NCBI GenBank assembly: GCA_017303975.1
Contig: JAFLBG010000001.1
Location: forward strand, 91,988-155,987
DNA from: Bacteroidota bacterium
GTDB lineage: Bacteria; Bacteroidota; Bacteroidia; JAFLBG01
Length of the DNA: 64,000 bases
Direction of reading: 5' to 3'
Shown here: positions 3,150-60,425 of the stretch, piece by piece
How the letters are laid out: every line of letters starts with the position of its first letter
How positions within the stretch are numbered: position 1 is the first letter of the stretch
Notes under the pieces: generated by a model
What the model saw: only the letters and a program-made list of their open reading frames with translations
Told to the model about the DNA's origin: nothing
Databases searched by the model: none
Made by a program: the position numbers and the translations under genes

Positions 3150-3635
3150 GTGGAAAAACCATTAATAAATAAAAAATACACATTAGAAAAATTCCATGGC
3201 AAAGGAGGTTGGACCTTTGCGCGTATACCCGAAATTAAACAAGACAAAAAAGCACACTTTGGTTGGAGAAAGGTTAAAGGAACTATTGATGGTTATGAGA
3301 TAAAAAAATACCATTTGATGCCAATGGGTAATGGAATGCTCTTTTTACCTGTGAGAGCGGAGATTCGAAAAAAAATTGGGAAGAAAGAAGGAGATAGTGT
3401 TCATGTAATTTTGTATCCCGACAATGAACCCTTAGAAGTACCGGAGGAAATGTTGCTTTGTATGCAAGATGAACCGGAAGCGTTGCGCTTTTTCAATTCA
3501 ATATCTGAAAGCGAGCGTAAATACTATATACAATGGATTTATTCGGCTAAGAAAGAGGAAACAAAAATAAATAGGCTAGCAAAAACAATCAATAGACTAT
3601 TTAAAGGAATGAAAATGTATGATAAAGAAGAATAA
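3150..3635 (+). CDS. DUF1905 + YdeI/OmpD-associated (DUF1801-like) family protein
   Basis: 161 aa. N-terminal 'KGGWTFARIP...GYEIKKYHLMPMGNGMLFLPV' fits DUF1905. C-terminal 'EPEALRFFNSISESERKYYIQWIYSAKKEETKINRLAKTI' fits the YdeI/OmpD-associated bacteriocin-protection family. Confidence 0.7.
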   Translation: MEKPLINKKYTLEKFHGKGGWTFARIPEIKQDKKAHFGWRKVKGTIDGYEIKKYHLMPMGNGMLFLPVRAEIRKKIGKKEGDSVHVILYPDNEPLEVPEEMLLCMQDEPEALRFFNSISESERKYYIQWIYSAKKEETKINRLAKTINRLFKGMKMYDKEE

Positions 3636-7128: not shown

Positions 7129-9333
7129 CTACCTTAATAAGCTAACACAACCCATAACAGTTTTACTTTTATTTGTGAGTGCGTTGTTAAAATCTATTTT
7201 ATATATGTAAGTATCAATCTGACATAATCTGTTGTTGTAATACCCGTTCCAACCATCAGTGGTGTTGGTTGTTTCAAATACTTTATTTCCCCACCTATCA
7301 AAAATTCTGAATATATAGTTATTTACAACGCCAGAAATTTTCGGTGCAAATACTTCATTTTGCCCATTGTTATTAGGGGTAAAGGCGTTGGGTACGTATA
7401 ATACATAGTCTGAATCAACTTCTATTGTTACATCTGATGTGTCCGAGCAGATGGAGTCGGTCATTACAATTTGGCGAGCTCTATAAATACCGGCTTCTGT
7501 ATAACTGTGTTTTTCTGATAGAAAATCACACACATTGATAGATGTCCCATCCCCAAAATCTAAAAGACAATTTGTTCCATTTGAGCTTAGATCTGTAAAT
7601 GTTATATCTGGCTCTACCATGTTTGTAAATAATGGTGTGGCGGTAACACTTGCTGTTGGCATTTTAAAAACAGTTATTAAACTGTCCAATTTAAAATCAA
7701 ATACTTTGTTGCACCCAAAATTATTTGTGGCTAATATTTGTAAGCTAGCATTGTAAATCCCCGGAACATATGTATGTGCTACGGATGAAAGTTGAGAAGA
7801 GTCTCCATCTCCGAAATTCCAATGGTAGTTTAGTATGTTGCCGGAAGCATTTGTGGTGTCAACAAAATTGACGGTAAAAGGAGCGCACCCTTTTAATTTT
7901 TTCATTTTGAAATCCGCTGTTGCCATTGGATTTATTGTAACTGTTTTTGTCAGCACCTTTGTACAACCATTTTCCGATAAGGTAACTTTTACAATTTTGT
8001 TACCAGTTGAAGAATAGCTCACGCCACCAGGAGAATCAGCGGTAGAGCTTGCCGGTGTGGCAGATGTTCCAAAATTCCAACTATAATCTGTTGTGGGTGC
8101 ACCTTGCACAGGACCCGCAATTGAAAACCCAAAGCTATTTCCTGTTAAGCATTGTGGGGCGGGAGCGGTAAGTGTTGGGGAGAATAAAGGATATACTTTG
8201 AATGTTTTTTTTGTAGTTACCGAGCAAGAATCAAATTGGTCTCCGGTTAATGTAACGGTGTATGTACCTGGGTTGTTGTATGTATAGGATGGGTTTACGA
8301 AGTGAGATGTGTCGTTAGTTAAATTTACATCTCCAAAATCCCAGTGGTATTTAGTAATATTTGTACTCGTGCTAAAAAAATTAATTGTTAATCCCGAGCA
8401 AAATGTTTGTTGAGCCTGAATGCTAATAACTTTAGTAGGAGCACAGCTTACAACATTGAACTGAAAATCACGTTTGTTGATGCACAGTAAATTACCATTA
8501 CGGTATTCTTTTACGCAAACAGCAATAACATATTGCCCAGTATTATTTGGGGTACCAGCAATTAATCCTGTTTGGGGGTTAATTGAAAATGCAGATGATG
8601 CACCAAATGGTTTGATAGCAGAATATCCGCCTACATAGCTAACACTACTATAGGGTGGATTAAATGGGGGCTGTGGCATAGGGGTATAAGAATTGGCACC
8701 ATCAAACGGATTGCAGAGTTCATATGCCAGCGAATCTCCATCTGGATCGGTTGCTTCATGATCAAAAGAAAAAGGTTTTCCGGCACATAAATATATAGGC
8801 GGAAAGCTATTGTAATATGCACTACTATTTATTCCTAATGATGTATCTGGTATTGTAATTTGATATGTTGCACCAGTGCTGCCAGGACTAGAAAGATTAG
8901 AAATGGTGTTATTGCGACAACATCTTTGATACACAATGTTGTAACCGCCTGCAATTGGAGGAAGGTTAATTGTTGCTGTATAAATAGCCTCTTCTACGCA
9001 AACATTAGATGTTGACTTTACGCAAGGGTAGTTTAATACCGAAGGCACATTTATTGAATTGAATTGGTATGGTATAAGTATAGAATCAACCAGTGTGTTC
9101 GATGAATTAAATATTCCTATTGCAGCTAGTGTATCGTAGGGGGCTTGCCCATTTATACAATCCCTATACAACTTAAGTGTAATCAAGTAATTATTATTTC
9201 CTTGGGAGGTGTAATAAATCTCACCACCAACAATGTGTGTGGCTTTACTTTCAAACATAAGTAATAGAAAGAATACAAATGCAAGTATTGTTTTTAATGC
9301 TTTCATGGGTTTTGGGTGGTTAAGTTGTAGCAA
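7129..9333 (-). CDS. T9SS type-B C-terminal sorting domain protein with PKD-like domains
   Basis: Signal peptide MKALKTILAFVFFLLLMF. Several W.FGDG motifs. C-terminus 'FTPNNNGQNEVF...IFDRWGNKVFETT...WNG...YIYK...GCVSLLR' (TIGR04131-like). Confidence 0.85.
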   Translation of the reverse strand: MLQLNHPKPMKALKTILAFVFFLLLMFESKATHIVGGEIYYTSQGNNNYLITLKLYRDCINGQAPYDTLAAIGIFNSSNTLVDSILIPYQFNSINVPSVLNYPCVKSTSNVCVEEAIYTATINLPPIAGGYNIVYQRCCRNNTISNLSSPGSTGATYQITIPDTSLGINSSAYYNSFPPIYLCAGKPFSFDHEATDPDGDSLAYELCNPFDGANSYTPMPQPPFNPPYSSVSYVGGYSAIKPFGASSAFSINPQTGLIAGTPNNTGQYVIAVCVKEYRNGNLLCINKRDFQFNVVSCAPTKVISIQAQQTFCSGLTINFFSTSTNITKYHWDFGDVNLTNDTSHFVNPSYTYNNPGTYTVTLTGDQFDSCSVTTKKTFKVYPLFSPTLTAPAPQCLTGNSFGFSIAGPVQGAPTTDYSWNFGTSATPASSTADSPGGVSYSSTGNKIVKVTLSENGCTKVLTKTVTINPMATADFKMKKLKGCAPFTVNFVDTTNASGNILNYHWNFGDGDSSQLSSVAHTYVPGIYNASLQILATNNFGCNKVFDFKLDSLITVFKMPTASVTATPLFTNMVEPDITFTDLSSNGTNCLLDFGDGTSINVCDFLSEKHSYTEAGIYRARQIVMTDSICSDTSDVTIEVDSDYVLYVPNAFTPNNNGQNEVFAPKISGVVNNYIFRIFDRWGNKVFETTNTTDGWNGYYNNRLCQIDTYIYKIDFNNALTNKSKTVMGCVSLLR

Positions 9334-19581: not shown

Positions 19582-19606
19582 TTCTATTTTACATTGAATA
19601 AAAAAA

Positions 19607-19631
19607 GCCTCGCATTTGCGAGGCTTTTTTT
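19607..19631 (+). terminator. Rho-independent terminator
   Basis: GCCTCGCA/TGCGAGGC stem followed by TTTTTTT. It sits inside the 5' extension of the 19594 ORF, which argues for the later start at 19645. Confidence 0.6.
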
Positions 19632-19644
19632 ATATCTTGACTTT

Positions 19645-22121: not shown

Positions 22122-23816
22122 TTACTCTTTATAAAACTTAATAGGTGTGGTGTAATCATTTAAATATAAAAAATACAAACCGCTACTAAGTGAAGATACA
22201 TCAATACGTGTAGCAGATACCACTTCGTTATTTAAAACTATTTTCCCTGTTACATCTGTTAGTGTATATTTTCTAATTGTTTGTTGTTCTACTTCCCAGT
22301 TTACTTGCAAAACAGTGCTGGCGGGGTTGGGATAAACAATAAATGGATGTTGTGATTTGTTTGTATTGTAAACACCTAGCGGATTCTCCGAAATTTTGTA
22401 AACATACACATCCGCAAATGCTTTGGCTGTAATTGCTACAGGGCTGCCGGAAGGGTTGAAATTAGCTGTTTGGAAAAAGTAGCCTGTACTATAAATTTTA
22501 CGGTCGTAGCTAACAGCAATAGCCAAGCCCATTTGGTCGCCAGAACCGGTAACGGGAGCTACCCAGGTGAAATTACCTGCCGAGTCGAGCTTTTGAACAT
22601 ACCCATCAAATGAAAAAGCTGTAGAGCTTAGTGTGTGTGATCCTGAGCCCGGGTCAAAATCATTTGTGTTTTCAAAATATCCCGTTGTAAAAACTCCTGC
22701 ATTATCATCAACCGCAATAGCCCAAGCAATACTGTTTCCGCCCCCAGCTACCTGTTTCGCCCAAATATAATTTCCAACATAACCCATTTTACATACAAAC
22801 GCATCGTTGCCCGATGAAACCAAATTAGCGCTACCCAACCCCGAATCAAAGTCGGCTGCGCCTCCGTTGAAATAGCCTGTTGAATATATATTCTCGTCTT
22901 TATCAATAGCAATACCGTTTATTCGTTCATCGCCACTACCCGAAATTGTTTTAACCCAAACAGTGCTTCCCGTTGGAGAAAGCTTGCAGACAAAGGCATC
23001 CGAACCCCCGCTTGCTGTTATATAGTTTGAGGATGTGCTAGGGTCAAAATCTACCGTGCCTTTAAAACCTCCTGCAACAATAACTTCGTTTACGCTAGTA
23101 GTAGCAATGGATGTGGCCTCTTCGTCATTACTTCCGGTTAAGCTAATTGCCCAACTAAAATTCCCCATGTTGTCTAGTTTACACACAAAAGCGTCTTTGT
23201 TTACAGCAGAAATATTTTTATTTGATGTGCTCGGATCAAAATCTACAGTACCTGTAAAATGCCCCGCTACCAATATATTCATCGATTTGTCGAGGGCAAT
23301 GGCAGTTCCATATTCAGAAGAAGTTCCTGCCAGATGTTTTACCCAGCCAAAGTTTCCTGCAGAATCGAGTTTCAACACAAAAATATCATTCGACCCCGAA
23401 ACGGACGAAAGGCTTGCTGTTCCGGCATTTGGATTAAAATCAACAGTGCCACTAAAGTAACCGGTAACATAGATATTTCCTAAGGTGTCAACCGCTAGTG
23501 CGCTCCCCATCTCATAATCAGAACCACCGATGCTTTTTATCCATTTAAAATTTCCTACAGAGTCTAATTTGCTGATAAAAATATCTGTACCGCCCTGCGA
23601 TGCTTTATTTGCTAAGGAGGAAAGATTTGGGTCAAAATCAACGGTGCCATAGAAAAGCCCTGTGGTGTAAATATTCCCCCACTTATCTGTTGCAATGGCT
23701 CTGGGTTCTTCATCCATTGTTCCACTAAAAGCTTTTGCCCAGTTTAATTGTTGTGCAGATATAACAGCGGAAAGACTTATAAGTAGAAAGAATAAGGAAC
23801 TTCTGGCTTTTATCAT
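22122..23816 (-). CDS. SBBP-repeat beta-propeller protein with T9SS type-A C-terminal sorting domain
   Basis: Signal peptide. Roughly 9 repeats of 'G..D.G.AIA.D..GN.Y.TG.F.GT.DFDP' (SBBP, PF06739). C-terminus 'IVYPNPAST.LQV...LTDVTGKIV...SSGLYFL' is TIGR04183-like. Confidence 0.75.
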   Translation of the reverse strand: MIKARSSLFFLLISLSAVISAQQLNWAKAFSGTMDEEPRAIATDKWGNIYTTGLFYGTVDFDPNLSSLANKASQGGTDIFISKLDSVGNFKWIKSIGGSDYEMGSALAVDTLGNIYVTGYFSGTVDFNPNAGTASLSSVSGSNDIFVLKLDSAGNFGWVKHLAGTSSEYGTAIALDKSMNILVAGHFTGTVDFDPSTSNKNISAVNKDAFVCKLDNMGNFSWAISLTGSNDEEATSIATTSVNEVIVAGGFKGTVDFDPSTSSNYITASGGSDAFVCKLSPTGSTVWVKTISGSGDERINGIAIDKDENIYSTGYFNGGAADFDSGLGSANLVSSGNDAFVCKMGYVGNYIWAKQVAGGGNSIAWAIAVDDNAGVFTTGYFENTNDFDPGSGSHTLSSTAFSFDGYVQKLDSAGNFTWVAPVTGSGDQMGLAIAVSYDRKIYSTGYFFQTANFNPSGSPVAITAKAFADVYVYKISENPLGVYNTNKSQHPFIVYPNPASTVLQVNWEVEQQTIRKYTLTDVTGKIVLNNEVVSATRIDVSSLSSGLYFLYLNDYTTPIKFYKE

Positions 23817-23898
23817 ATTCTCCTTAAGTTACTCATTTTGCGGATTTTTTGTGCAATACAAAACAATACAATCTGCTAAGTTGTTAATAACCTAGATT

Positions 23899-23931
23899 TT
23901 TTGGTGGAATACCTATTTTTAGGTATTTTTG
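23899..23931 (+). promoter_or_regulatory. Candidate Bacteroidetes-type promoter of the suf operon (TTG at -33, TAnnTTTG at -7) with a palindrome in the spacer
   Basis: TTG at 23901-23903. TATTTTTG at 23924-23931, which matches the Bacteroidetes sigma-A -7 consensus TAnnTTTG. 20-nt spacer. The palindrome AATACCT-attttt-AGGTATT (23908-23927) lies between the two elements, about 30 nt upstream of the sufA start. Confidence 0.4.
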
Positions 23932-23960
23932 TATTTAGAATTAATCTAAATAGGGATTTT

Positions 23961-24287
23961 ATGATAACAGTATCAGATAATGCCAAGCAACAGGCACTTC
24001 ATTTAATGAAGCAAGACAATAAGCCCGAAGGTGCTTTTATTCGTGTTGGTGTAGAGGGTGGAGGCTGCTCCGGATTGAGTTATAAGCTTGAATTTGACAC
24101 CGAACTAAAAGAGGGGGATCAACAGTTTGAAGATAAGGGAATAAAAATAGTGGTGGACAAAAAAAGCTTTTTATACTTGGTTGGAACAGAGCTTGATTTT
24201 TCGGGTGGACTAAACGGAAAAGGATTTGTATTTAATAATCCTAATGCATCGAGAACTTGTGGGTGTGGGGAATCGTTTGCAGTATAA
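23961..24287 (+). CDS. sufA: Fe-S cluster insertion protein, HesB/IscA/SufA family
   Basis: 'FIRVGVEGGGCSGLSY...' with the C-terminal 'CGCGESF' motif. The internal Met at 23961 was chosen as start because the upstream extension covers the promoter palindrome. Confidence 0.85.
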   Translation: MITVSDNAKQQALHLMKQDNKPEGAFIRVGVEGGGCSGLSYKLEFDTELKEGDQQFEDKGIKIVVDKKSFLYLVGTELDFSGGLNGKGFVFNNPNASRTCGCGESFAV

Positions 24288-24296
24288 AATAGTTTT

Positions 24297-24776
24297 TTAG
24301 TTCGTTAGTTCACCAGTTTTTAGTAAAAAATGGCAACAATAGATAGGTTTGAAGATTTAATAGCTTGGCAAAAAGCTAAAAAATTGGCACTGGGTGTATA
24401 TACTCTTACAAATGTTGGGATTTTTTCTAAAGACTTTGGATTGCGAGATCAAGTGAGGCGATCTTCTATTTCTGTTGTATCTAATATTGCAGAGGGTTTT
24501 GAACGCAAAGGGAACAGAGAGTTTTTACAATTCTTATATATTTCGTTGGGGTCTTTAGGCGAGTTAAAAACTCAAATTGAAATTGCTTTTGAACTCAACT
24601 ATTTTTCAGAAAACGAATACAAAAATATTTTACCCCAAATAACAGAAGTGAGAAAAATTATAAATGGTTTAATTTCTAGTTTAAAGGATAGTGATTTTAA
24701 GGGAATAAAATTTAAGTATTCATAGTACTCGTAAACTGAAATACTAACAAACTGGCAAACTTGAATACTAGTAAAC
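24297..24776 (+). mobile_element. IR-bounded four-helix-bundle cassette 1 (imperfect ~20-bp inverted repeats)
   Basis: Left arm TTAGTTCGTTAGTTCACCAGTTTTTAGTA (24297-24325). Right arm TACTAACAAACTGGCAAACTTGAATACTAG (24747-24776). The reverse complement of the left arm aligns with the right arm at about 17 of 20 positions (tactaa-aaactgg-..aact). Confidence 0.35.
24330..24725 (+). CDS. Four helix bundle protein (TIGR02436 / PF05635 23S rRNA-intervening-sequence protein family), copy 1
   Basis: 'FEDLIAWQKAKKL...VYTLT...FGLRDQVRRSSISVVSNIAEGFERKGNREFLQFLYISLGSLGELKTQIEIAFEL' matches the family consensus. Confidence 0.85.
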   Translation: MATIDRFEDLIAWQKAKKLALGVYTLTNVGIFSKDFGLRDQVRRSSISVVSNIAEGFERKGNREFLQFLYISLGSLGELKTQIEIAFELNYFSENEYKNILPQITEVRKIINGLISSLKDSDFKGIKFKYS

Positions 24777-24786
24777 AAAAAAACTG

Positions 24787-26238
24787 ATGAACACAACTAT
24801 AGAAGAACACATCTCCTCCGATTATAAATACGGCTGGAGCACAGATATAGAAATGGACAATGCCCCAAAAGGCTTGAGTGAGGATATTGTGCGATTTATT
24901 TCCAAGAAAAAAAACGAACCGGAGTGGTTATTGGAATATAGGTTAAAAGCCTACAAACATTGGCTTACATTAGAAGAGCCACGGTATTGGCCACATTTGA
25001 ATTATCCTAAAATAGATTTTCAAAACATTATATATTACGCGGCACCTAAGCCACAAAAAAAATTAAACAGTCTAGACGAAGTTGATCCGGAACTTTTAAA
25101 AACCTTCGAAAAGCTTGGTATATCGCTCGAAGAACAAAAACGTATTTCTGGTGTAGAATCTAAAATTGCTGTAGATGCAGTAATTGATAGTGTTTCGGTA
25201 AAAACTACATTTAAAGAAACGTTAGCAGAGAAAGGAATTATTTTCTGCTCCTTCAGTGAGGCTGTGCACGAGCACCCGGAATTGATTAAACAATACATGG
25301 GCACTGTAGTGCCTTATACAGATAATTATTATGCAGCATTAAACTCTGCTGTTTTTAGCGATGGCTCGTTTTGTTATATACCAAAAGGAGTTCGTTGCCC
25401 AATGGAACTATCAACTTACTTTAGAATTAACTCAGCCGGTACCGGCCAATTTGAAAGGACGTTGTTAGTTGCCGATGAAGGTGCTTACGTTAGCTACTTG
25501 GAAGGCTGCACTGCTCCTATGCGCGATGAAAATCAGTTGCACGCTGCGGTGGTAGAAATTGTAGCTCATAAAAATGGAGAAGTAAAATACAGCACCGTTC
25601 AAAACTGGTACCCGGGCGACAAAGAGGGCAAGGGTGGTATTTACAATTTTGTAACCAAGCGTGGAATTTGTTTAGGAGATAATTCTAAAATTTCTTGGAC
25701 ACAAGTTGAAACCGGCTCTGCCATTACTTGGAAATACCCAAGTGTAATTTTAAAAGGAAATAATTCGGTTGGTGAGTTTTATTCGGTGGCTGTTACAAAC
25801 AACTACCAGCAAGCAGATACAGGCACCAAGATGATTCACTTAGGAAAAAACACTCGCAGCACCATTATATCAAAAGGAATTTCCGCAGGCTTTAGTAATA
25901 ATAGTTATAGAGGATTAGTGCGTGTAGCAAAAGGTGCCACCAATGCACGAAATTTTTCTCAATGTGATTCCTTGCTAATGGGCGACAAATGCGGAGCACA
26001 CACATTTCCGTACATTGAAATAAAAGATAAATCAGGCATAGTAGAGCACGAAGCTACTACTTCAAAAATTGGAGAAGATCAATTGTTTTATTGCAAACAA
26101 CGTGGAATTGACACAGAGAAAGCCATAGGACTTATTGTAAACGGCTATTGCAAAGAAGTTTTTAATCAGTTGCCTATGGAATTTGCGGTGGAAGCACAGA
26201 AATTATTAGCGGTTTCACTAGAAGGGTCTGTGGGATAA
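24787..26238 (+). CDS. sufB: Fe-S cluster assembly protein SufB
   Basis: 483 aa with SufB-characteristic blocks throughout. Confidence 0.95.
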
Positions 26239-26246
26239 AAAGTTAT

Positions 26247-26728
26247 AAAGTTTAAAGTTGGAAAGTTTGAAATCAAATAATATTAATGGCAACAATAGAA
26301 CGATTTGAGGATTTAAAAGTTTGGCAAAAAGCACGACAGCTGAACAAAGAAATATATAAAGTATCTAATACGGGTGCTTTTTCAAAAGATTTTGGATTAC
26401 GCGATCAAATAAGACGTTCAAGTATTTCTATCGTATCTAATATTGCTGAGGGTTATGAAAGAAATGGTACTAAAGAATTCAACCAGTTTTTATCAATAGC
26501 AAAGGCTTCTGCGGCAGAATTAAGAGCGCAGCTTTATGTTTCCTTTGATTTAGAATATATTTCTGAACAAGAATTTAATACCCTAATCTCTATTGTTCTT
26601 GAGGTTAGCAAAATGCTTTCCGGATTAATGAGTTATTTACAAACAACCGAAATAAAAGGGAATAAATTTAAAGAAAGTGCTGAATTGTATGGTACGAATC
26701 AACTTTAAACTTTCCAACTTTAAACTTT
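26247..26728 (+). mobile_element. IR-bounded four-helix-bundle cassette 2 (perfect 22-bp inverted repeats)
   Basis: AAAGTTTAAAGTTGGAAAGTTT at 26247-26268 is the exact reverse complement of AAACTTTCCAACTTTAAACTTT at 26707-26728. The arms enclose the whole 4HB gene. The right arm starts within the stop codon and abuts the sufC start. Confidence 0.5.
26286..26708 (+). CDS. Four helix bundle protein (TIGR02436 / PF05635 family), copy 2
   Basis: 'FEDLKVWQKARQL...IYKVS...FGLRDQIRRSSISIVSNIAEGYERNGTKEFNQFLSIAKASAAELRAQLYVSFDL'. Confidence 0.85.
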   Translation: MATIERFEDLKVWQKARQLNKEIYKVSNTGAFSKDFGLRDQIRRSSISIVSNIAEGYERNGTKEFNQFLSIAKASAAELRAQLYVSFDLEYISEQEFNTLISIVLEVSKMLSGLMSYLQTTEIKGNKFKESAELYGTNQL

Positions 26729-26733
26729 AAACT

Positions 26734-27480
26734 ATGTTGACTATAAAAAACCTACACGCAGGAATCGAAGACAAAGAAATTCTAAAAGGATTTTCATTAA
26801 ATGTTAAACCTGGAGAAGTTCATGCAATCATGGGTCCTAATGGATCGGGAAAAAGTACATTGGCTAGTGTGCTTGCAGGACGCGAAGATTATACCGTTAC
26901 CGATGGAGAAGTAACTTTTAAAAACAAGAACTTATTGGAGTTATCTCCTGAAGATAGAGCAAGAGAAGGCGTGTTTCTTGCATTTCAATATCCAATAGAG
27001 ATTCCTGGTGTAAGCAATATCAATTTTTTAAAGACGGCCATTAACGAAATTCGTGCGTACAAAGGCATGGAAGCAATGGAAGCAAAAGACTTTTTAAAAT
27101 TGGTAAAGGAAAAGCAAGCCATGGTGGAGTTACAAGGCACGCTGGCAAACCGCAGTGTTAACGAAGGTTTTAGCGGGGGAGAGAAAAAACGAAACGAAAT
27201 TTTTCAAATGGCCATGCTGGAGCCAAGCTTAGCTATACTTGATGAAACTGACTCCGGACTTGACATTGACGCTTTGCGTATTGTAGCCAGCGGTGTAAAT
27301 AAATTACGCAACAAAGACAGATCGTTTATTGTTATTACGCACTACCAACGTTTACTAGATTATATAGTTCCTGACTTTGTGCATGTAATGTATCAAGGAA
27401 AAATTGTAAAATCAGGTGGAAAAGAATTAGCGCTAGAGCTGGAGAAAAACGGATACGATTGGGTGAAGGAGTTAGTTTAA
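26734..27480 (+). CDS. sufC: Fe-S cluster assembly ATPase SufC
   Basis: Walker A 'GPNGSGKST', ABC signature 'FSGGEKKR', Walker B 'LAILDETDSGLD'. Confidence 0.95.
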   Translation: MLTIKNLHAGIEDKEILKGFSLNVKPGEVHAIMGPNGSGKSTLASVLAGREDYTVTDGEVTFKNKNLLELSPEDRAREGVFLAFQYPIEIPGVSNINFLKTAINEIRAYKGMEAMEAKDFLKLVKEKQAMVELQGTLANRSVNEGFSGGEKKRNEIFQMAMLEPSLAILDETDSGLDIDALRIVASGVNKLRNKDRSFIVITHYQRLLDYIVPDFVHVMYQGKIVKSGGKELALELEKNGYDWVKELV

Positions 27481-27663
27481 AGTTAGAAAGTCAAATTCTC
27501 CCCTTGAGAGCTTGTCCGCCTCTGGCGGAGGAGATATAGAGGGGTGTGTAGGGGAAATTGTGCGGTTTTAAATGTTTAATAGATTAACAACTTAATATCA
27601 CAAATTGTGACATGAAGTTGAATTACTAACAACAAAGAACTTTGAACAAAGAATTAATTTATA
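27481..27663 (+). repeat. 183-bp sufC-sufD spacer: degenerate IR-bounded element containing a GC-rich REP-like hairpin core
   Basis: Left AAAGTTAGAAAGT (27482-27494) and right AAGAACTTTGAACAAAG (27638-27654) are in inverted orientation and belong to the same AAAGTT heptamer family. The core at 27488-27545 (..CCGCCTCTGGCGG.. GAGGGGTGTGTAGGGGAA) is an inverted, diverged copy of the 70-bp GC-rich repeat at 28984 and 29875. It also holds the palindrome TCACAAATTGTGA (27613-27625). Confidence 0.4.
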
Positions 27664-28983
27664 ATGAACACAACCATAAAAACAAACATACCAACAGCAC
27701 TTTTAAGCTATCTTGAAAGTACCGCTGCAACACACGCCAATCAATCATTTCGAACCCAAGCGCTTGATAGCTTGTTAAACCAAGGGTTGCCTAACAAAAA
27801 AAGTGAAGAATATAAATATTCTCCGGTAGAAAAATTCTTCAAAGAGTTAAACTTTAGTTCAAAAGGAAATTCGCCTAATGCAGACATATTCAAAACCCTT
27901 AATTATCCTAAGCTACGAGGAGTCGAAGTTTTTGCAATTAATGGAATTATTGTGGCGTCTAGTCACACTGAGCCTGTCGAAGTGTCTGGGAGTACTATTA
28001 AAATCCAATCCCTAAAACAAGCGATGTTAGAAAACAATAAAATCGCAGATACATATCTCGGTCAACTTTCTTCCAAAAACCAAGACCCTTTCATTGCCTT
28101 AAACAATGCAGCTTTTGAAGATGGTATATTTATTCATCTGGAAAAGAACGCAATAGTAGAAGAGCCAATTCACATTATCAATTACGTTACCTCCCAAGAA
28201 AACTGTTTAATTCAACCGCATCATTTATTTGTATTTGAAGAAAACTCTCAAACCACAATTATTGAAACTACTATAATTAAAGGTAGTAGCGTTGGCTTTG
28301 TTTATAATAGTTTGGTGGAAATGCAAGCAGCAGAAAATTCTAAAATAAATTATTATCGCTTGCAGCTGGGATCTAAGTCGGATGATACTAAAAAAGCTGC
28401 AGTATTTAACACACAAATAAATCAAGAGAAAAATTCTACCGTAGATACTAATACAATTACCATCAATACTTCTTGGTTACGCAATAATCATAACATTGTT
28501 TTAAATGGTACCAATTGTGAAGCACATTTAAACGGTTTGTTTTTAATAAACAACCATCAGCACGTTGATAATCACACCTTGGTTGACCACCAGCAACCGC
28601 ATTGCCAAAGCAATCAGTTGTACAAAGGAATTTTAAGTGATAAGTCGACCGGAATATTCAATGGAAAAATATTTGTTCGCAAGGATGCACAAAAAACAAA
28701 TGCATATCAATCAAGCAAAAATATTTTGTTGAGTGACGATGCTACAATCAATGCAAAACCACAATTAGAAATTTATGCCGATGATGTAAAGTGTTCGCAC
28801 GGTTCATCAACAGGCAAGATTGACACGGATGCCCTGTTTTACTTACGTGCACGGGGAGTTGGCGAAGAATCCGCCAGAAGGCTCTTATTACATGCTTTTG
28901 CAAATGATGTGATTGAAACTATAAAAAACGAAGAGTTGCAAATGACTATTAAAGAAATTATAGAAAAGCAACTTTATGTATAA
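27664..28983 (+). CDS. sufD: Fe-S cluster assembly protein SufD
   Basis: 439 aa with SufB/SufD-family C-terminal beta-helix motifs ('ILLSDDATINAKPQLEIYADDVKCSHGSSTGKID'). Confidence 0.9.
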   Translation: MNTTIKTNIPTALLSYLESTAATHANQSFRTQALDSLLNQGLPNKKSEEYKYSPVEKFFKELNFSSKGNSPNADIFKTLNYPKLRGVEVFAINGIIVASSHTEPVEVSGSTIKIQSLKQAMLENNKIADTYLGQLSSKNQDPFIALNNAAFEDGIFIHLEKNAIVEEPIHIINYVTSQENCLIQPHHLFVFEENSQTTIIETTIIKGSSVGFVYNSLVEMQAAENSKINYYRLQLGSKSDDTKKAAVFNTQINQEKNSTVDTNTITINTSWLRNNHNIVLNGTNCEAHLNGLFLINNHQHVDNHTLVDHQQPHCQSNQLYKGILSDKSTGIFNGKIFVRKDAQKTNAYQSSKNILLSDDATINAKPQLEIYADDVKCSHGSSTGKIDTDALFYLRARGVGEESARRLLLHAFANDVIETIKNEELQMTIKEIIEKQLYV

Positions 28984-29056
28984 ACACACCCCTAGCCCCT
29001 CTCAAGAGGGGAACCTACGCACACTTCCCTACTTGAGGAGGAATTATGGAGGTGTA
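28984..29056 (+). repeat. GC-rich ~72-bp REP-like repeat, copy A (two GC hairpins)
   Basis: ACACACCCCTAGCCCCTCTCAAGAGGGGAACCTACGCACACTTCCCTACTTGAGGAGG...GGAGGTGTA. It contains hairpins CCCCTCT-ca-AGAGGGG and a TCCCT.C-ttga-GGAGG stem. About 90% identical to copy B at 29875..29946. A 3' half-copy lies at 29476..29506. Confidence 0.7.
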
Positions 29057-29093
29057 CCACAAGAGTGCAATTATATAAACAACAAATTGGATA

Positions 29094-29507
29094 ATGTTTG
29101 ACATCTGGCACATAGCTATTCCTGTAACTAATATAGAAGAATCCATTTCTTTCTATTGCGATTTTCTTGGCTTCATTTTTATTGGAACCGATGAGAATCA
29201 CAACAAAAAGCAAGCTTTTATTAAAACTCCTGGTGGTAATATGTCTATCGAATTATTTATTGAAAGCAACAGCATTAACAAAAAAATGCCCGATCATATT
29301 GCTTTTGAGTGCGATGATATTGAAACCTACATTAATAAATTAAAAAGCAAAAACGCAACTATTCCTACGCACCTTAATTCTTATGATAATGGTGTTCGCT
29401 TTTTTTCCTTGATAGATCCACAGGGTATTCCTTTGCATTTTTTTAAAGGAAGAAAACTTTATGAAGATTCATTAATTCCCTCCTTGAGGAGGGCCAGGGA
29501 GGTGTAA
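29094..29507 (+). CDS. VOC family protein (glyoxalase/bleomycin-resistance/dioxygenase fold)
   Basis: 'WHIAIPVTNIEESISFYCDFLGF' at the N-terminus and 'DHIAFECDDIETYINKL' fit VOC. The C-terminal 'SLRRAREV*' is encoded by the half-repeat. Confidence 0.65.
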   Translation: MFDIWHIAIPVTNIEESISFYCDFLGFIFIGTDENHNKKQAFIKTPGGNMSIELFIESNSINKKMPDHIAFECDDIETYINKLKSKNATIPTHLNSYDNGVRFFSLIDPQGIPLHFFKGRKLYEDSLIPSLRRAREV

Positions 29508-29512
29508 ATAAT

Positions 29513-29947
29513 ATGAAACATAAATTTATTACATATAACCCAAAACTAAAAGAACTCGCTCGTAGGTTGCGCAACAATAGCACAAAGTCTGAGATTAAGC
29601 TATGGAACTATTTAAAAGGCGATAAATTACTAGGGTATGACTTTCACCGACAAAAGCCTATTGGTAATTATATTTGTGATTTCTTTTGTAAAGAATTAAT
29701 GTTGGCTATTGAGGTGGATGGCTATTCACATACACTAGAAGATGTACAAAAAAAAGATATTGAAAAGCAGAAGTATCTTGAAAGTCTAAACATTACTATT
29801 CTTAGATTTACGGATACAGAAATTTTTGAACAGATTGATAACGTTATTAGAAAAATAGAGCATTGGGTGAGAGAACACACCCCTAGCCCCTCTCAAGAGG
29901 TGAACCTACGCACTTCCCTCCTTGAGGAGGGACTAAGGGAGGTGTAA
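29513..29947 (+). CDS. DUF559 endonuclease-domain protein (Vsr-like PD-(D/E)xK family)
   Basis: 'ARRLRNNSTKSEIKLWNYLKGDKLLGYDFHRQKPIGNYICDFFCKELMLAIEVDGYSH' is the DUF559 signature. The C-terminal 24 aa are translated from repeat copy B. Confidence 0.85.
   Translation: MKHKFITYNPKLKELARRLRNNSTKSEIKLWNYLKGDKLLGYDFHRQKPIGNYICDFFCKELMLAIEVDGYSHTLEDVQKKDIEKQKYLESLNITILRFTDTEIFEQIDNVIRKIEHWVREHTPSPSQEVNLRTSLLEEGLREV
29875..29946 (+). repeat. GC-rich ~72-bp REP-like repeat, copy B
   Basis: Direct repeat of 28984..29056 at about 90% identity. With copy A it brackets the VOC + DUF559 pair. Confidence 0.7.
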
Positions 29948-29968
29948 AATTAAATTAATACTAAAGAG

Positions 29969-31186
29969 TTGTACAACATAACTAACATAAGCGACCAATT
30001 CCCAATACTTTCAGAGAAGGTAAATGGCAAACCATTGGTTTATTTGGACAATGCCGCCACTGTTCAAAAACCAAAACAAGTTATTGATGCTATTGTAAAT
30101 TACTATACACACACCAACGCAAATATTCACAGAGGTGTTCATACGTTGAGTCAAAAAGCTACAGATGCTTATGAGCAAGCACGAAAAAAAGTAGCTGACT
30201 TTATTGGTGCCTCAACTAACGAAATAGTATTTACGCGTGGTACCACAGAATCAATAAATTTAGTTGCGGAAACCTTCGGAAAAAAATTTATTTCAGCAGG
30301 AGATGAAATTGTAATTACAGAAATGGAGCATCACAGTAATATTTTGCCTTGGCAAAAATTATGTGAAGAAAAAGGGGCAAAATTAATTGTTGCACCAATC
30401 AACAACTCTGGAGAATTGATGCTCAATGAATTTGAAAAATTACTCTCCCTAAAAGCCAAGTTGATTGCAATTACCCATGTATCAAACACATTGGGGACAA
30501 TTAATCCAATAAAAAAAATAATAGAATTAGCTCATTCCAAAAATATATTTGTTCTTATAGATGGTGCACAGGCTGTGCCACACCTAAAAGTAAATGTAAA
30601 AGAGCTTGATGCCGATTTCTATTGCTTTAGTGGACACAAGATGTACGCACCTACGGGAATTGGTGCATTGTATATAAAAGAAAAGTGGTTGGCTCAATTG
30701 CCCACTTATCAGATTGGTGGTGGTGTTATAAAAACGGTTTCGTTTACCAAAACAGAATATATAGATGGACCTTTAAAATACGAAGCTGGTACTCCCAATA
30801 TTGCCGGTGCCATAGGACTTAGTGCAGCTATAGATTTTATGAATGAAATTGGTATTGAAACCATTCAGCATCATGAAGAAAAGTTGCTGCGTTATGCAAC
30901 AGAACAAATAACGCAACTGGAAAAAATAAAAATTATTGGGACAGCGACTGAAAAAGCTGGTGTGCTATCCTTCATTGTGGAAGGAGCACATCCATTCGAT
31001 GTTGGAACACTGTTAGATAAAATGGGTATTGCTGTTCGTACGGGACACCACTGCACACAACCCTTGATGGAAAAATATAAAATTCAAGGTACCGTGCGCG
31101 CTTCCTTTGCTTGTTATAATACCATTGAGGAAATAGATGTATTTTTGGAGGGATTAAAAAAGACGATTAGGATGTTAGTTGGGTAA
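29969..31186 (+). CDS. sufS: Cysteine desulfurase SufS (class V aminotransferase)
   Basis: 'FSGHKMYAPTGIGALY' PLP-lysine region and 'RTGHHCTQPLM' active-site Cys loop. Confidence 0.95.
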   Translation: MYNITNISDQFPILSEKVNGKPLVYLDNAATVQKPKQVIDAIVNYYTHTNANIHRGVHTLSQKATDAYEQARKKVADFIGASTNEIVFTRGTTESINLVAETFGKKFISAGDEIVITEMEHHSNILPWQKLCEEKGAKLIVAPINNSGELMLNEFEKLLSLKAKLIAITHVSNTLGTINPIKKIIELAHSKNIFVLIDGAQAVPHLKVNVKELDADFYCFSGHKMYAPTGIGALYIKEKWLAQLPTYQIGGGVIKTVSFTKTEYIDGPLKYEAGTPNIAGAIGLSAAIDFMNEIGIETIQHHEEKLLRYATEQITQLEKIKIIGTATEKAGVLSFIVEGAHPFDVGTLLDKMGIAVRTGHHCTQPLMEKYKIQGTVRASFACYNTIEEIDVFLEGLKKTIRMLVG

Positions 31187-31198
31187 TAAAAGGTGGGT

Positions 31199-31652
31199 GA
31201 TTGACTAGTCCGATAGTCTGTTAGTCAATTAGTCAGAAAGCTTACAGTAAATGAATTATGGCAACGATACAAAAATTTGAAGATATTGTAGCTTGGCAAA
31301 AGGCGAGGGAATTAAATAAGCGGATTTATTTGCTTACAACCAACTCTGCGATTGCAAAGGATTATGGATTACGCGACCAAATGAGAAGATGTTCAATTTC
31401 TGTGATGTCGAATATTGCAGAAGGATTTGAAAGAACCGGAGATAAAGAGTTTGCAAGATTTTTGAGCATTGCGATGGGATCGTGTGCCGAATTAAAGTCA
31501 CAACTTTATGCAGCACTGGATGTTGGATTTATAACTGAAATGGAATTTAATTCAGTTGTTATTCTCGTTGATGAAACTGGAAAGTTAATACAATCATTCA
31601 GAAAATATTTACGACTAACAGACTAGCGGACTTTTTAACTAACAGACTATAA
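31199..31652 (+). mobile_element. IR-bounded four-helix-bundle cassette 3 (19/20-bp inverted repeats, duplicated arm motif)
   Basis: AGTCCGATAGTCTGTTAGTC (31207-31226) pairs with GACTAACAGACTAGCGGACT (31613-31632), matching at 19 of 20 positions. A second unit, TAACTAACAGACTAT (about 31637-31651), pairs with ATAGTCTGTTAGTCA. The arms bracket the 4HB gene between the sufS stop and the sufE start. Confidence 0.5.
31258..31626 (+). CDS. Four helix bundle protein (TIGR02436 / PF05635 family), copy 3
   Basis: 'FEDIVAWQKARELNKRIYLLT...YGLRDQMRRCSISVMSNIAEGFERTGDKEFARFLSIAMGSCAELKSQLYAALDV'. Confidence 0.85.
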   Translation: MATIQKFEDIVAWQKARELNKRIYLLTTNSAIAKDYGLRDQMRRCSISVMSNIAEGFERTGDKEFARFLSIAMGSCAELKSQLYAALDVGFITEMEFNSVVILVDETGKLIQSFRKYLRLTD

Positions 31653-32084
31653 ATGACAATAAGCGCCATAGAAAAAGAAATTATAGACGAGTTTTCCTTA
31701 TTTGATAATGACTGGGAAAGTAAGTACGAGCACCTTATCGATTTAGGGAAGTCTCTTCCGTTAATTAACGAAAAGTACAAAACAGAAGATAGGCTTATAA
31801 AAGGCTGTCAAAGTCGTGTTTGGCTTCATTCAGAATTGAAAAATGATACTATTGTGTTCACCGCAGACAGTGACGCTATCATAACTAAGGGTATTGTAGC
31901 ACTTTTGATTCGTGTGTTGTCAAACCAAACTTCTGAAAATATTATAAATGCAAAGTTAGACTTTATAGATAAAATTGGATTGAAAGAGCACCTCTCACCT
32001 ACACGAGCCAATGGTTTGGTTAGTATGATAAAACAAATGAAACTGGATGCAATAATCCTAAAACAAAATGAAAATGAAGAATAA
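31653..32084 (+). CDS. sufE: SufE family cysteine desulfuration (sulfur acceptor) protein
   Basis: 'LIKGCQSRVWLHSEL...IFTADSDAIITKGIVALL' carries the conserved Cys of SufE. Confidence 0.85.
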   Translation: MTISAIEKEIIDEFSLFDNDWESKYEHLIDLGKSLPLINEKYKTEDRLIKGCQSRVWLHSELKNDTIVFTADSDAIITKGIVALLIRVLSNQTSENIINAKLDFIDKIGLKEHLSPTRANGLVSMIKQMKLDAIILKQNENEE

Positions 32085-33741
32085 TTATGATTTTGTAAGT
32101 GATTTCTATGAAGATATAGCGCTTGTTTTAAAAAACAATAAACTAGGAATTATAGATAAAGAAGGCGAACTAATTTTACCACCTACTAAATATACCTATG
32201 TAGGTAGTGTAAGCAAGCTGAATGAAGAGTTTATTAACGGCATGAAGAGAGATGGACTTATTGTTATTTCCATTGATGGTAAATTTGGATTTATTGATAA
32301 AACCGGAAAGGAAATAATTCCCATAATATATGATCAGATTAATTATTTCTATGGGGATTTATACATAGTTAAAAAGGATGAAAAGTTTGGATTAATTGAC
32401 AAAGGAGTGAAGCAAATTGTTCCTATGATTTATGACTCCATTAACTCAATACCCAATAATGGTAAATACGATTACGCAACAAACACTATTTCATACCCTG
32501 TTGATGGGTATTACCAGGTTACAAAAGGTGACAAGTTTGGTTTTATCAATTATAAAGGAGTTGAAACGGTGCCTGTTGAATATGATTATGATGATTATAC
32601 AATTCAAATTGATGAGGATGTGATAAGTGTTAGTAAAAACGGGAAGTGGGGAATAATAAATATGCACAACGAGGTGGTAGTTCCATTTGTTTATGACTCG
32701 ATAAAGGAATCAAGAGGGCTTGGTGTATTTCCTGCAATGAAAAATGACGCATGGGGTATTATTGATAAAACCGGAAAGGAAATAGCTCCATTAATATATG
32801 ATGACGCATATAATAATTTTAGTGATTTTTCTGTGGTTCAGAAGGATGAAAAATTTGGTGGTATAGATCCTTCGGGGAAACTTATTATAGAATTAATTTA
32901 TGATGAATTTCAAGTAGATCCTTATGATGGGGAACCTGTGCTAATCTCAGAAGGAATATTTTCCGTTAAAAAAGATGGCAAATGGGGGCATTTAGCGGTT
33001 TCAGGAAAAGAAATAACACCAACTATTTATGATAGTGCTGGTTCCTTCAGAAATGGAACCGCATTAGTTAGGGTCAAAGATAAGATCGGCAGGGTTAATG
33101 CGAATGGAGACGAAGTAATTCCATGTAAATATGGGAAACTACAAGCTTTTGAAGATGATAAATTTTTTATTGCCTCTACGAAAAAAGGCTTCGTAAACAA
33201 CAAGACCAATGGTGTTATAAATAACAAAGGAGAAATCGTTGTTCCATTGGAATACGAATTCATTAGCCCGTTATCTATTACTAATTTGGTGGGAGTAATG
33301 AAAGATGATAAAGTAGGATGCATAGATCTCTTTACTAAAAAAGATATTATCCCTATTATTTATGATCGCATAGGCACATTGGATAATGAGCACGAACGAA
33401 AAACTTTCGCAACTGAAACGGGTGAAACGCTGGAAGAGAAAACACATCCGTTTTTACTACGGGTTTTAAAAGACGAAAAGGTCGGGGTTTTTGATAAAAC
33501 CGGAAAAACAATAATTCCGATAGAATACGATGCGGTAAACCCAATAACAGAAGGGGATTTGTGGTTATTTGAACTAGTTAAAGAAGGGAAACTAGGTATT
33601 ATGAACGAGTCGGGAAAATTAATTTTGCCACTTGAGTTTGATGATAAAGCGGTACTTCTGAAGAGAGGAATCTTAACTCTTGAAAAAAATGGAACAACCT
33701 TTTCGTTTAATCAAGAGGGAACGAAAATAGAAAATGTATAG
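32068..33741 (+). CDS. WG-containing (KWG) repeat protein
   Basis: At least 12 tandem ~35-aa repeats of the form 'KFGFIDKTGKEIIPIIYD' (PF14903). Confidence 0.8.
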   Translation: MKMKNNYDFVSDFYEDIALVLKNNKLGIIDKEGELILPPTKYTYVGSVSKLNEEFINGMKRDGLIVISIDGKFGFIDKTGKEIIPIIYDQINYFYGDLYIVKKDEKFGLIDKGVKQIVPMIYDSINSIPNNGKYDYATNTISYPVDGYYQVTKGDKFGFINYKGVETVPVEYDYDDYTIQIDEDVISVSKNGKWGIINMHNEVVVPFVYDSIKESRGLGVFPAMKNDAWGIIDKTGKEIAPLIYDDAYNNFSDFSVVQKDEKFGGIDPSGKLIIELIYDEFQVDPYDGEPVLISEGIFSVKKDGKWGHLAVSGKEITPTIYDSAGSFRNGTALVRVKDKIGRVNANGDEVIPCKYGKLQAFEDDKFFIASTKKGFVNNKTNGVINNKGEIVVPLEYEFISPLSITNLVGVMKDDKVGCIDLFTKKDIIPIIYDRIGTLDNEHERKTFATETGETLEEKTHPFLLRVLKDEKVGVFDKTGKTIIPIEYDAVNPITEGDLWLFELVKEGKLGIMNESGKLILPLEFDDKAVLLKRGILTLEKNGTTFSFNQEGTKIENV

Positions 33742-33773
33742 CCATAGGCTCTAAAAATAAATAGATAAGAATT

Positions 33774-34103
33774 ATGCCTGCAATAATAGTAACAAACAAT
33801 ACAGAGCTTACTCAAAAGGTAATTGATGTAATTAAAAGCTGTTATGATCCTGAAATACCAGTAGATATATGGGAATTAGGACTCATCTATGAAATAAATT
33901 TGAACGATGATGCAGAACTTAGTGTACAAATGACACTAACATCTCCGTCTTGCCCAGTTGCAGAAACTTTGCCCCCTGAGGTAGAGCAAAAATTAAGAGA
34001 TATTCCAGGAATAAAATCGGCTAAAATTAATTTGACTTTTGAGCCACCATGGGAAAAAAGTATGATGAGTGATGTAGCTCAGTTGGAGCTGGGGTTTATG
34101 TAG
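33774..34103 (+). CDS. DUF59 / MIP18-family Fe-S assembly protein (SufT-like)
   Basis: 'CYDPEIPVDIWELGLIY...LTSPSCPV' is the DUF59 signature. Confidence 0.8.
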   Translation: MPAIIVTNNTELTQKVIDVIKSCYDPEIPVDIWELGLIYEINLNDDAELSVQMTLTSPSCPVAETLPPEVEQKLRDIPGIKSAKINLTFEPPWEKSMMSDVAQLELGFM

Positions 34104-34153
34104 TTTGTGGGTACAGTAGCTAGAACAAAGTAATTAGTAGTAAGAAAAACAAG

Positions 34154-34660
34154 ATGGATGAAATAATCAATAAAGTAGCACAAAGCGGATTGGTGGAGTT
34201 GAATTTGGAAGAATATTTTCCAAAAGGAGAGCGCATTTTACTCGATATTAAAGACAATTTATTTCAAGGTTTGATTTTGAAGGAAAAAGATTTTCGTGTG
34301 TTTATTGAACAAGAAAATTGGAGCAAATACCAAGATAAATATGTTGCTGTGTATTGTTCTGTTGATGCGGTTATCCCAACATGGGCGTATATGCTATTAA
34401 CAGTAGCGCTTGAGCCGTATGCAAAAAAAATTGTCTTTGGTACAGAAGAAGTGTTAAATTCCATTTTACTAAATGAATCGCTTCAAAAAATCAATGTTGA
34501 TGACTATGTTGATAAACGCATAATCATAAAAGGTTGCAGCAATTTACCCGTTCCAACAAATGCCTTTGTGGAAATTACGCGCATACTTAAACCTGTTGCC
34601 AAAAGTATCATGTATGGCGAAGCATGTTCTACGGTTCCTTTGTATAAAAAGAAAGCTTAG
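34154..34660 (+). CDS. Conserved Bacteroidetes hypothetical protein (DUF2480-like) at the end of the suf cluster
   Basis: 168 aa with no motifs I can tie to a function. Its position downstream of the suf genes is typical for DUF2480 in Flavobacteriia, but that is recalled rather than checked. Confidence 0.45.
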   Translation: MDEIINKVAQSGLVELNLEEYFPKGERILLDIKDNLFQGLILKEKDFRVFIEQENWSKYQDKYVAVYCSVDAVIPTWAYMLLTVALEPYAKKIVFGTEEVLNSILLNESLQKINVDDYVDKRIIIKGCSNLPVPTNAFVEITRILKPVAKSIMYGEACSTVPLYKKKA

Positions 34661-34869
34661 TTTACAAATAAGTATAAGAATCGTGTCTTACGCGTTCTTC
34701 TGAAGATCACATATCTCCTTTTAATATTCTCTTTCATGAGTGCTTGTATTAGTTATTATAATGTCTTTTTATACATTATAACGCAAAAAGCATGCCTAAG
34801 GTTTACCTAATTTGATAAAAGGTGTAAAATGGCCTATAAATGGCTGTTATATACCAGTGAGTAAAAATC

Positions 34870-46739: not shown

Positions 46740-46809
46740 AATAGCCACAAATTACGAAATATGTTACAGGCACTGAAGAACTTTGTTCGAAAAAATTTAA
46801 CTTGCGTAT

Positions 46810-60348: not shown

Positions 60349-60425
60349 GAAGGTTATAAAGTTGAAAAGTTTGAAAGTTGTTCTTTACTTTAAACTTTCT
60401 AAACTTTCCGATTTTAAACTAACGT
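60349..60425 (+). repeat. Solo palindromic element of the AAAGTTT-heptamer family (IR arms adjacent, no cargo)
   Basis: Left GGTTATAAAGTTGAAAAGTTTGAAAGTTG. 7-nt loop. Right CTTTAAACTTTCTAAACTTTCC. Arm complementarity is about 17 of 20. The left arm is about 80% identical to the left IR arm of 4HB cassette 2 (26241-26273). It fills the whole gltA-to-UbiD-like spacer. Confidence 0.6.

Follow-up and report, generated by a model that had tools for sequence, protein, structure and literature searches.

Four-helix-bundle (4HB) proteins of the PF05635/TIGR02436 family are among the most common unexplained small proteins of bacteria, and one search returned >7,800 homologues. To our knowledge, the only context in which they have been studied is the intervening sequence (IVS) of 23S ribosomal RNA (rRNA), the origin and purpose of which have been debated since about 1990. 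Here we analyze a stretch of DNA from a Bacteroidota bacterium (contig JAFLBG010000001.1; the whole stretch of 64,000 nucleotides (nt) is referred to as the window), in which a 4HB gene, 4HB-2, is enclosed by complementary arrays of short repeats between sufB and sufC of the suf operon. In this window and in related loci, the 4HB gene is usually packaged between complementary heptamer arrays, in sense orientation and at operon junctions, and relocates together with its arrays as a unit.

The closest described system is the IVS in helix 45 of Coxiella burnetii 23S rRNA, in which the open reading frame (ORF) for an S23p protein lies in the loop of a stem formed by the IVS termini and which is excised by RNase III (PMC4990558). 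Three tandem GACAGAT heptamers (two in some strains) and one degenerate copy stand immediately upstream of the ATG, and the 5′ RNase III cut falls at the first heptamer repeat (PMC4990558). Our comparison rests on this published description. Like the 23S rRNA IVSs of Leptospira and C. burnetii, the window locus has an S23p/PF05635 gene in the loop of a long inverted-repeat stem, tandem heptamers of variable copy number directly upstream of the ORF, a predicted position within a host transcript and a sporadic distribution suggesting gain and loss (PMC4990558). In contrast, its host is an mRNA operon, at the junctions sufB|sufC, sufA|sufB and sufS|sufE, rather than helix 25 or 45, and a search of 160 related loci detected nothing resembling rRNA. 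The ORF of the window lineage is also under strong purifying selection, whereas that of Coxiella is reported as decaying and untranslated, and excision by RNase III, demonstrated for the rRNA IVS, would apply here by analogy.

A second relative is the group of heptanucleotide arrays of Xanthomonas and cyanobacteria, often arranged as convergent pairs, to which no function or gene has been assigned (PMC4692102). The Xanthomonas GGGAATC and cyanobacterial STRR repeats resemble the window arrays as intergenic 7-nt tandem arrays, often in inverted pairs, with copy numbers that vary between relatives. However, the Xanthomonas repeats were described as simple repeats forming G-quadruplexes, while the window units are A/T-rich and unable to form them, and neither 4HB genes nor the IVS anatomy was linked to the repeats in that study (PMC4692102). 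Array no. 15 of the GGGAATC type (four copies) overlaps the start of XCC0516 next to bccP, at XCC0516-XCC0517 (PMC4692102, supplementary file 2). XCC0516 is the 4HB protein crystallised as PDB 2GSC, and the repeats and the 4HB family were not connected there.

The third relative is Avd of diversity-generating retroelements (DGRs), which has a homologous 4HB fold; the 4HB-2 protein matches the Avd-type profiles PF22296 (bAvd, E = 6e-6), PHROG 3206 (E = 1e-9) and NF033474 (27 bits against a cut-off of 80). In DGRs, Avd relatives bind nucleic acid and the reverse transcriptase. In contrast, the genes adjacent to 4HB-2 are suf genes, no reverse transcriptase is adjacent and no direct repeat resembling a template/variable repeat pair was found in 23800-30100; on these grounds and the sub-threshold Avd score, we rejected a DGR. 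Relatives are rare on viral contigs, with just nine distant 4HB loci among 2.9 million, which indicates that the 4HB family is not mainly phage-borne. None of the papers searched describes inverted arrays flanking 4HB genes outside rRNA. Rfam has no family for such arrays, and an Rfam search of the suf operon (23500-34800) gave no relevant match.

Anatomy of the module between sufB and sufC

The first-pass annotation of the window reported a 22-mer, AAAGTTTAAAGTTGGAAAGTTT (26247-26268), whose exact reverse complement (26707-26728) lies beyond a 423-bp ORF, starts within the stop codon of that ORF and is followed 5 nt later by sufC. Sequence inspection agreed in every detail: the right 22-mer starts at the second base of the TAA stop codon of 4HB-2 (26706-26708), and 5 nt separate position 26728 from the sufC ATG at 26734. 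The perfect inverted repeat is in fact 23 nt long (26246-26268 and 26707-26729), and pairing of the arms extends to 26 nt at 96% complementarity. Its improbability by chance, also asserted in that annotation, held in each comparison made. The window, which is Bacteroidota-like and has 36% G+C, contains only two matches to the 22-mer even when three mismatches are allowed, and none of 100 shuffles gave two. Among arms within 700 nt of each other, the window has no other perfect inverted repeat as long as this one of 23 nt, and perfect repeats of at least 18 nt arose in only 0.5% of 200 first-order Markov random windows. Based on the shuffles, the Markov windows and the control genes described below, we rejected a chance origin. 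The runner-up in the window (~19598-19634) is a conventional-looking hairpin with arms of ~17 nt and a loop of 3 nt.

Each arm consists of a few units in tandem, AAAGTT(T/A/GG) on the left and AAACTTT on the right, and the heptamer relatives named in the first-pass annotation are thus present in the repeat itself (Table 1). The 5′ array begins 1 nt past the sufB stop codon and is followed by a 14-nt A/T-rich leader (26272-26285) ahead of the 4HB-2 ORF; the 3′ arm spans the final codons and the stop codon of 4HB-2 and ends right before the sufC ATG. To score such flanks, we determined the best duplex between the 70 nt upstream of an ORF and an 85-nt segment made up of the final 25 nt of the ORF and the 60 nt that follow it, and expressed it as a z-score against shuffles. 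The flank z-score is −6.9 for this module (5′ AAAGTTT, 3′ AAACTTT), and its long-range stem is kept in both the minimum free energy (MFE) and the centroid RNA folds of the whole region. An intrinsic terminator, expected to have a short G+C-rich hairpin and a T-run, was considered and rejected: the arms are A/T-rich, the loop is about 430-432 nt and the right arm is followed by AAACTATG, with no T-run.

Table 1 Coordinates of the 4HB modules, their host genes and related arrays in the window
Feature	Position	Strand	Details
Module 1, sufA|sufB	24291..24785	+	ORF 24330-24725; 5′ arm 24291-24319; 3′ arm 24757-24785
sufB	24787..26238	+	Host gene upstream of module 2; Pfam SUFBD_core, E = 3e-77
5′ arm, module 2	26239..26272	+	Tandem AAAGTT-type units of 7-8 nt; perfect core 26246-26268
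4HB-2 gene	26286..26708	+	140 aa, 423 bp; PF05635 23S_rRNA_IVP / TIGR02436 four helix bundle protein
3′ arm, module 2	26700..26733	+	Tandem AAACTTT units; perfect core 26707-26729
sufC	26734..27480	+	Host gene downstream of module 2; Pfam ABC_tran; gene order conserved in 80 related loci
Third arm-motif copy, AGTTTAAAGTTAGAAAGT	27474..27491	+	Overlaps the sufC stop codon
Module 3, sufS|sufE	31207..31632	+	ORF 31258-31626; 5′ arm 31207-31226; 3′ arm 31613-31632
Gene-less hairpin	60355..60415	+	AAAGTT / AAACTTT units; between co-oriented citrate synthase and ubiD genes

The 4HB-2 protein matches PF05635 over the full-length profile (1-106; E = 1e-39, 135 bits against a cut-off of 33.8) and TIGR02436 with 122 bits (cut-off 24). 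The closest protein of known structure is XCC0516 of Xanthomonas campestris (PDB 2GSC; E = 2.6e-14, five chains), and PDB 2RLD is also similar in sequence. An identical protein is recorded from a Bacteroidetes metagenome-assembled genome (P0001), and no defence-system model of PADLOC was matched by the window 4HB proteins. Among orthologues of this 140-aa lineage, the ratio of nonsynonymous to synonymous substitution rates (dN/dS) is 0.05-0.18 with dS of at least 1, that is, with saturated synonymous sites. The 4HB protein is therefore functional, and neutral sequence would have been randomised over this distance.

On the + strand, the operon reads sufA, 4HB-1, sufB, 4HB-2, sufC, a 183-nt spacer, sufD, VOC and DUF559 genes, sufS, 4HB-3 and sufE. 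A tblastn search found exactly three 4HB genes in the 64 kb, all within the suf operon and with ~50% mutual identity, and each is flanked by complementary short-period arrays of its own distinct unit. In module 1 the units are AGTTnnnn (5′) and AAACT (3′), with a flank z-score of −4.0; in module 3 they are TAGTC (5′) and GACTA (3′, overlapping the stop codon), with a z-score of −5.4 and a stem present in both the MFE and centroid RNA folds.

Complementary arrays are general among 4HB genes

We obtained 80 suf loci from a SufB-based scan with one genome per species, and 80 further 4HB loci from a metagenome scan with a 4HB alignment (loci are denoted L001 and so on). The flanks of 83 4HB genes had a median z-score of −3.3, with 54% below −3, compared with −0.07 and 2.3% for 259 non-4HB genes of the same loci, which served as controls (Mann-Whitney P = 3e-19). 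On inspection, the same design recurs, an upstream tandem array and its reverse complement downstream, with a unit that differs per element: examples are CAGAGTTC/GAACTCTG, GTTTCAAG/CTTGAAAC, AAGTCCA/TGGACTT, GAGTGAT/ATCACTC and CGTTCAAAN/NTTTGAACG. A period of 7 predominates (26 of the 45 upstream arms and 31 of the 45 downstream ones), followed by 8 and 9. Under strict criteria for calling arrays, 50 reverse-complementary pairs were obtained, of which 34 have a 4HB gene inside, in a loop of 400-650 nt. Heptamer arrays also stand on both sides of the relatives from IMG/VR contigs, which are classed as viral; these relatives are only 32-39% identical (L173-L180; for example, GGCAGAA/TTCTGCC and ATAGGGT/CTATCCC). 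The arms are thus a general feature specific to 4HB genes, in which complementarity, periodicity and position are conserved and sequence is not. Very long arrays also occur beside 4HB genes, with 8-nt units over up to 185 nt and 7-nt units over up to 325 nt; several lie in a row (L120:1741-1925, 3374-3500 and 4422-4545; L129:3590-5284), as if massively expandable.

Position within host operons is equally regular. In the metagenome 4HB loci, 56 upstream neighbours share the strand of the 4HB gene and nine do not; for downstream neighbours the figures are 55 and nine, and gaps are short; overall, 86% of modules are in sense orientation within operons. The neighbouring proteins span 152 Pfam families, the commonest being SufB/D (four) and ABC ATPases (four). 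In Flavobacterium columnare, a 4HB gene is listed between gmk and nadD (PMC5524665). Arms have a median length of 30 nt: the left arm begins a median of 4 nt past the upstream stop codon, and the right arm begins near the 4HB stop codon and ends a median of 7 nt ahead of the downstream start. Formation of the stem would therefore place the host stop and start codons ~11 nt apart, which is the length of the empty sufB-sufC junction in L007, L025 and L020 (10-11 nt).

These comparisons bear on the simplest alternative, that a generic intergenic hairpin, such as a terminator, a repetitive extragenic palindrome (REP)-like element or a simple-sequence repeat, flanks the 4HB gene by coincidence. Heptamer arrays or convergent pairs without a 4HB gene do exist, in the window (the hairpin between the citrate synthase and ubiD genes) and in L104, L115, L075 and L047, and most of the 186 GGGAATC arrays of Xanthomonas lack a 4HB gene (PMC4692102). 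Nevertheless, we consider coincidence very improbable, given the rarity of complementary flanks among control genes, the predominance of 4HB genes inside array pairs, the movement of arms with the gene between sites (below) and the structure of module 2, which is not terminator-like. Nor is the 22-mer a ubiquitous terminator-like repeat, a possibility that the first-pass annotation had kept in view: it is unique in the window, where arrays of related units occur at only three further sites in 64 kb. Two of these are listed in Table 1, and the third is an in-frame (GAACTTT)x4 array, whose unit is of the type seen in the 4HB arms, at 45898-45925 within the methionyl-tRNA synthetase gene metG (minus strand, ORF 44667-46748). 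The copy overlapping the sufC stop codon faces AAAGAACTTTGAACAAAG at the far end of the sufC-sufD spacer, and the two together look like an arm remnant without a 4HB gene. The gene-less hairpin folds with −19.7 kcal/mol (z-score −3.0); either it arose from a 4HB module by deletion or it is an array pair in its own right.

Tandem 7-8-nt arrays were also observed in sufB-sufC spacers without a 4HB gene, namely (ACGAATnn)x4 in L003:2017-2058 and solo arrays in L013, L026, L039, L058 and L074 (~7430-7710), including (AGTTAGT)x11 in L026.

Arms and gene are gained, lost and relocated as one unit

The sufB|sufC junction carries a 4HB gene in L001, L002, L004, L006 and the distant L031 and L061, and is empty in L003, L007, L025, L012, L020 and L073. 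Presence and absence alternate among close relatives: the SufB proteins of L007 and L025 are ~90% identical to those of L002 and L006, closer than window SufB at 87%, yet the module is present in the window, L002 and L006 and missing from L007 and L025. Moreover, the junction of L001 and L004 holds another 4HB lineage (63% mutual identity, ~50% identity to the window copy), and the L003 copy at sufS|sufE resembles the window copy at sufB|sufC more than the window copy at sufS|sufE.

All closest homologues of window 4HB-2 (72-84% identical) lie in suf operons at one of two junctions, sufB|sufC (P0002, P0006 and P0027) or sufA|sufB (P0010, P0012, P0013, P0015 and P0025), and every one of them carries AAAGTT/AAACTTT arms at either junction. 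In the metagenome loci, 4HB proteins that are 69-86% identical have matching unit types beside non-homologous neighbours. Arms and gene therefore relocate, and are gained and lost, as one unit, of which the 4HB gene is the defining and only gene. Among orthologues, array copy number ranges from 3 to >11 units, and the sufA|sufB spacer of L162 contains apparent arm remnants without a gene. In L166-L168, the intact sufA|sufB module is followed by a 3′ fragment of a second 4HB gene (..EIKGSKFMEEGFVYG.TQL) and a second right arm (L166:2924-3072, L167:2924-3194 and L168:2924-3196), which points to insertion in tandem or to unequal recombination of the arrays. At the same junction, L169:265-960 holds a 62-aa ORF and a DUF2204-like nucleotidyltransferase gene (156 aa) followed by an AAAGTT-type array; suf junctions of these bacteria seem to collect several kinds of small accessory genes.

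The first-pass annotation had taken the 4HB gene to be the cargo of a discrete element and had proposed a search for target-site duplications outside the arms. Discreteness is well supported by presence and absence at sufB|sufC and by occurrence at two suf junctions, while transposon-like cargo is not. In a transposon, or an element resembling a miniature inverted-repeat transposable element (MITE), the arms would be terminal inverted repeats for a transposase encoded elsewhere, with the 4HB gene as passenger. The inverted termini, the presence/absence polymorphism at one junction, the same arms and gene at two suf junctions and in unrelated contexts, and gene-less hairpins that resemble non-autonomous derivatives would all suit such an element, as would the symmetry of arm mismatches described below, which is compatible with symmetry at the level of DNA. 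Yet none of the three window modules has a target-site duplication, and direct repeats of at least 4 nt flank 4% of 45 elements compared with 8% of permuted pairs. Among the 116 proteins encoded next to the modules, no transposase, integrase or reverse transcriptase was encountered repeatedly, although a transposase could be encoded elsewhere in the genome. Arm sequences differ wholly between elements, leaving no shared terminus for a transposase, and the termini are tandem arrays of variable copy number rather than fixed ends. The sense bias, and a 4HB gene that is always present and under purifying selection, are also unlike arbitrary cargo. On balance, we regard a DNA transposon as unlikely.

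Maintained complementarity and a proposed fate of the operon transcript

Near-perfect arms are kept by the window, L162, L164 and L002 despite dS of at least 1, and only those of L006 have decayed. At one stem position, the window and L164 both have G-C, whereas L002 has G-U and L169 has A-U, and other paired changes run from G-C to U-A and from U-A to C-G; these are explicit examples, as slippage of the register between tandem units makes column-wise alignment arbitrary. Together, these observations argue that pairing of the arms is maintained, by selection or by conversion between arms. Of 45 elements, 43 have a 5′ arm rich in G+T and 44 one with more G than C, and a loose (A)GT(T) core is present in 41-43 of the 45 arms. 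This polarity was considered as a strand-specific signal and rejected since it is symmetric under reverse complement and says nothing about the transcribed strand.

We favour, with moderate confidence, the reading that 4HB-2 and its arms form an IVS-type module in the spacer of an mRNA operon, co-transcribed with its host genes, looped out by an RNA stem and probably a substrate of RNase III. From 5′ to 3′, the module comprises an array of 7-8-nt units, a short A/T-rich leader, the 4HB (S23p/Avd-like) gene and the complementary 3′ array; it has no sign of a mobility gene of its own and would be read within a sufA-B-C-D-S-E transcript. In that RNA, the arrays would pair into a helix of 26-30 bp that loops out the 4HB cistron and holds the sufB stop and sufC start codons a few nt apart at its base, mimicking the 10-11-nt junction of genomes without the insert. 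By analogy with the 23S rRNA IVS of the same protein family, this helix would probably be cut by RNase III, and cleavage would release a stem-capped 4HB mRNA. Alternatively or additionally, ribosomes terminating on sufB and on the 4HB gene may melt the arms and keep translation of sufC coupled. Over evolution, arms and gene come, go and change place as the single unit described above.

Several points weigh against this reading. First, cleavage by RNase III inside a polycistronic mRNA would cut the operon transcript. Second, arm mismatches are of the G-U type in 43 cases and of the A-C type in 38, with no strand asymmetry, and duplex energies of the sense and antisense strands are alike (53:47), so that these data do not tell RNA pairing apart from DNA pairing, or from recombination that keeps the arms alike. 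Third, about one third of 4HB genes have no significant flank complementarity within the 70- and 85-nt windows, and the arms of module 1 are weak and degenerate (72% complementary; whole-region fold z-score −0.5). Fourth, gene-less hairpins of the 4HB-arm kind exist, and the arrays may thus live independently of the gene. Lastly, whereas the anatomy, its generality and specificity to 4HB genes, the maintained complementarity, the sense bias and the relocation of whole units are shown here, pairing in RNA rather than DNA, cleavage by RNase III, translational coupling and any mechanism of movement are inferred.

The arrays could instead be binding sites of the 4HB protein, which forms a pentameric toroid in 2GSC, in a self-regulating or self-propagating arrangement; the complementarity would then be a by-product of placing the same sites on either side of the gene. 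Protein and unit do vary together, as proteins starting MSKKIE.. go with GAGTGAT units and those starting M.VKNFEDLE with 9-nt CGTTCAAAN units, although this would be equally expected from co-inheritance. Many arms have three to five units, to be set beside the five chains of the crystal entry, whereas among orthologues the number varies widely, from 3 to >11. The shared (A)GT(T) core and the nucleic acid and reverse transcriptase binding of Avd relatives would also suit a binding site, while exact inverted complementarity over 23-40 nt exceeds what an operator array needs. We consider this alternative possible but doubtful.

A wider variant would join the favoured IVS-type module to the gene-less arrays. 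Here, 4HB modules would be the autonomous form, and gene-less heptamer-array hairpins, including the Xanthomonas GGGAATC pairs and the cyanobacterial STRR repeats, the non-autonomous form of an unrecognised class of element. Through recognition of the arrays in RNA or DNA form, the Avd-like and presumably pentameric 4HB protein would help them persist or spread with no need for a conventional transposase, perhaps by way of an RNA intermediate that RNase III excises. We hold this variant to be speculative and rather improbable; if it is true, a single system would underlie rRNA IVSs, the 4HB modules between cistrons and the heptamer repeats found across genomes. The packaging of 4HB genes between complementary arrays, their sense orientation at operon junctions and their relocation as units make one testable object of three separate curiosities, namely the rRNA IVSs, the over-represented heptanucleotide repeats and the 4HB paralogues scattered over genomes, and yields a simple annotation rule for 4HB modules. 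Modules inside essential operons such as suf may also matter for the processing and translation of polycistronic mRNA in Bacteroidota.

Two further features of the suf operon lie outside the 4HB modules. A second, unrelated family of G+C-rich repeats includes a 40-nt direct repeat (98% identical; 28983-29022 and 29874-29913), shorter palindromic copies at 29476-29493 and 29914-29931, and an inverted copy in the sufC-sufD spacer at ~27508-27560. It supplies the C-terminal tails (..LEEGLREV) of the VOC/glyoxalase ORF (29094-29507) and the DUF559 endonuclease-like ORF (29513-29947), both of which are lodged between sufD and sufS. Finally, a gene for a 557-aa WG-repeat protein (32068-33741) lies between sufE and a SufT-like gene, an unusual member of a suf operon.

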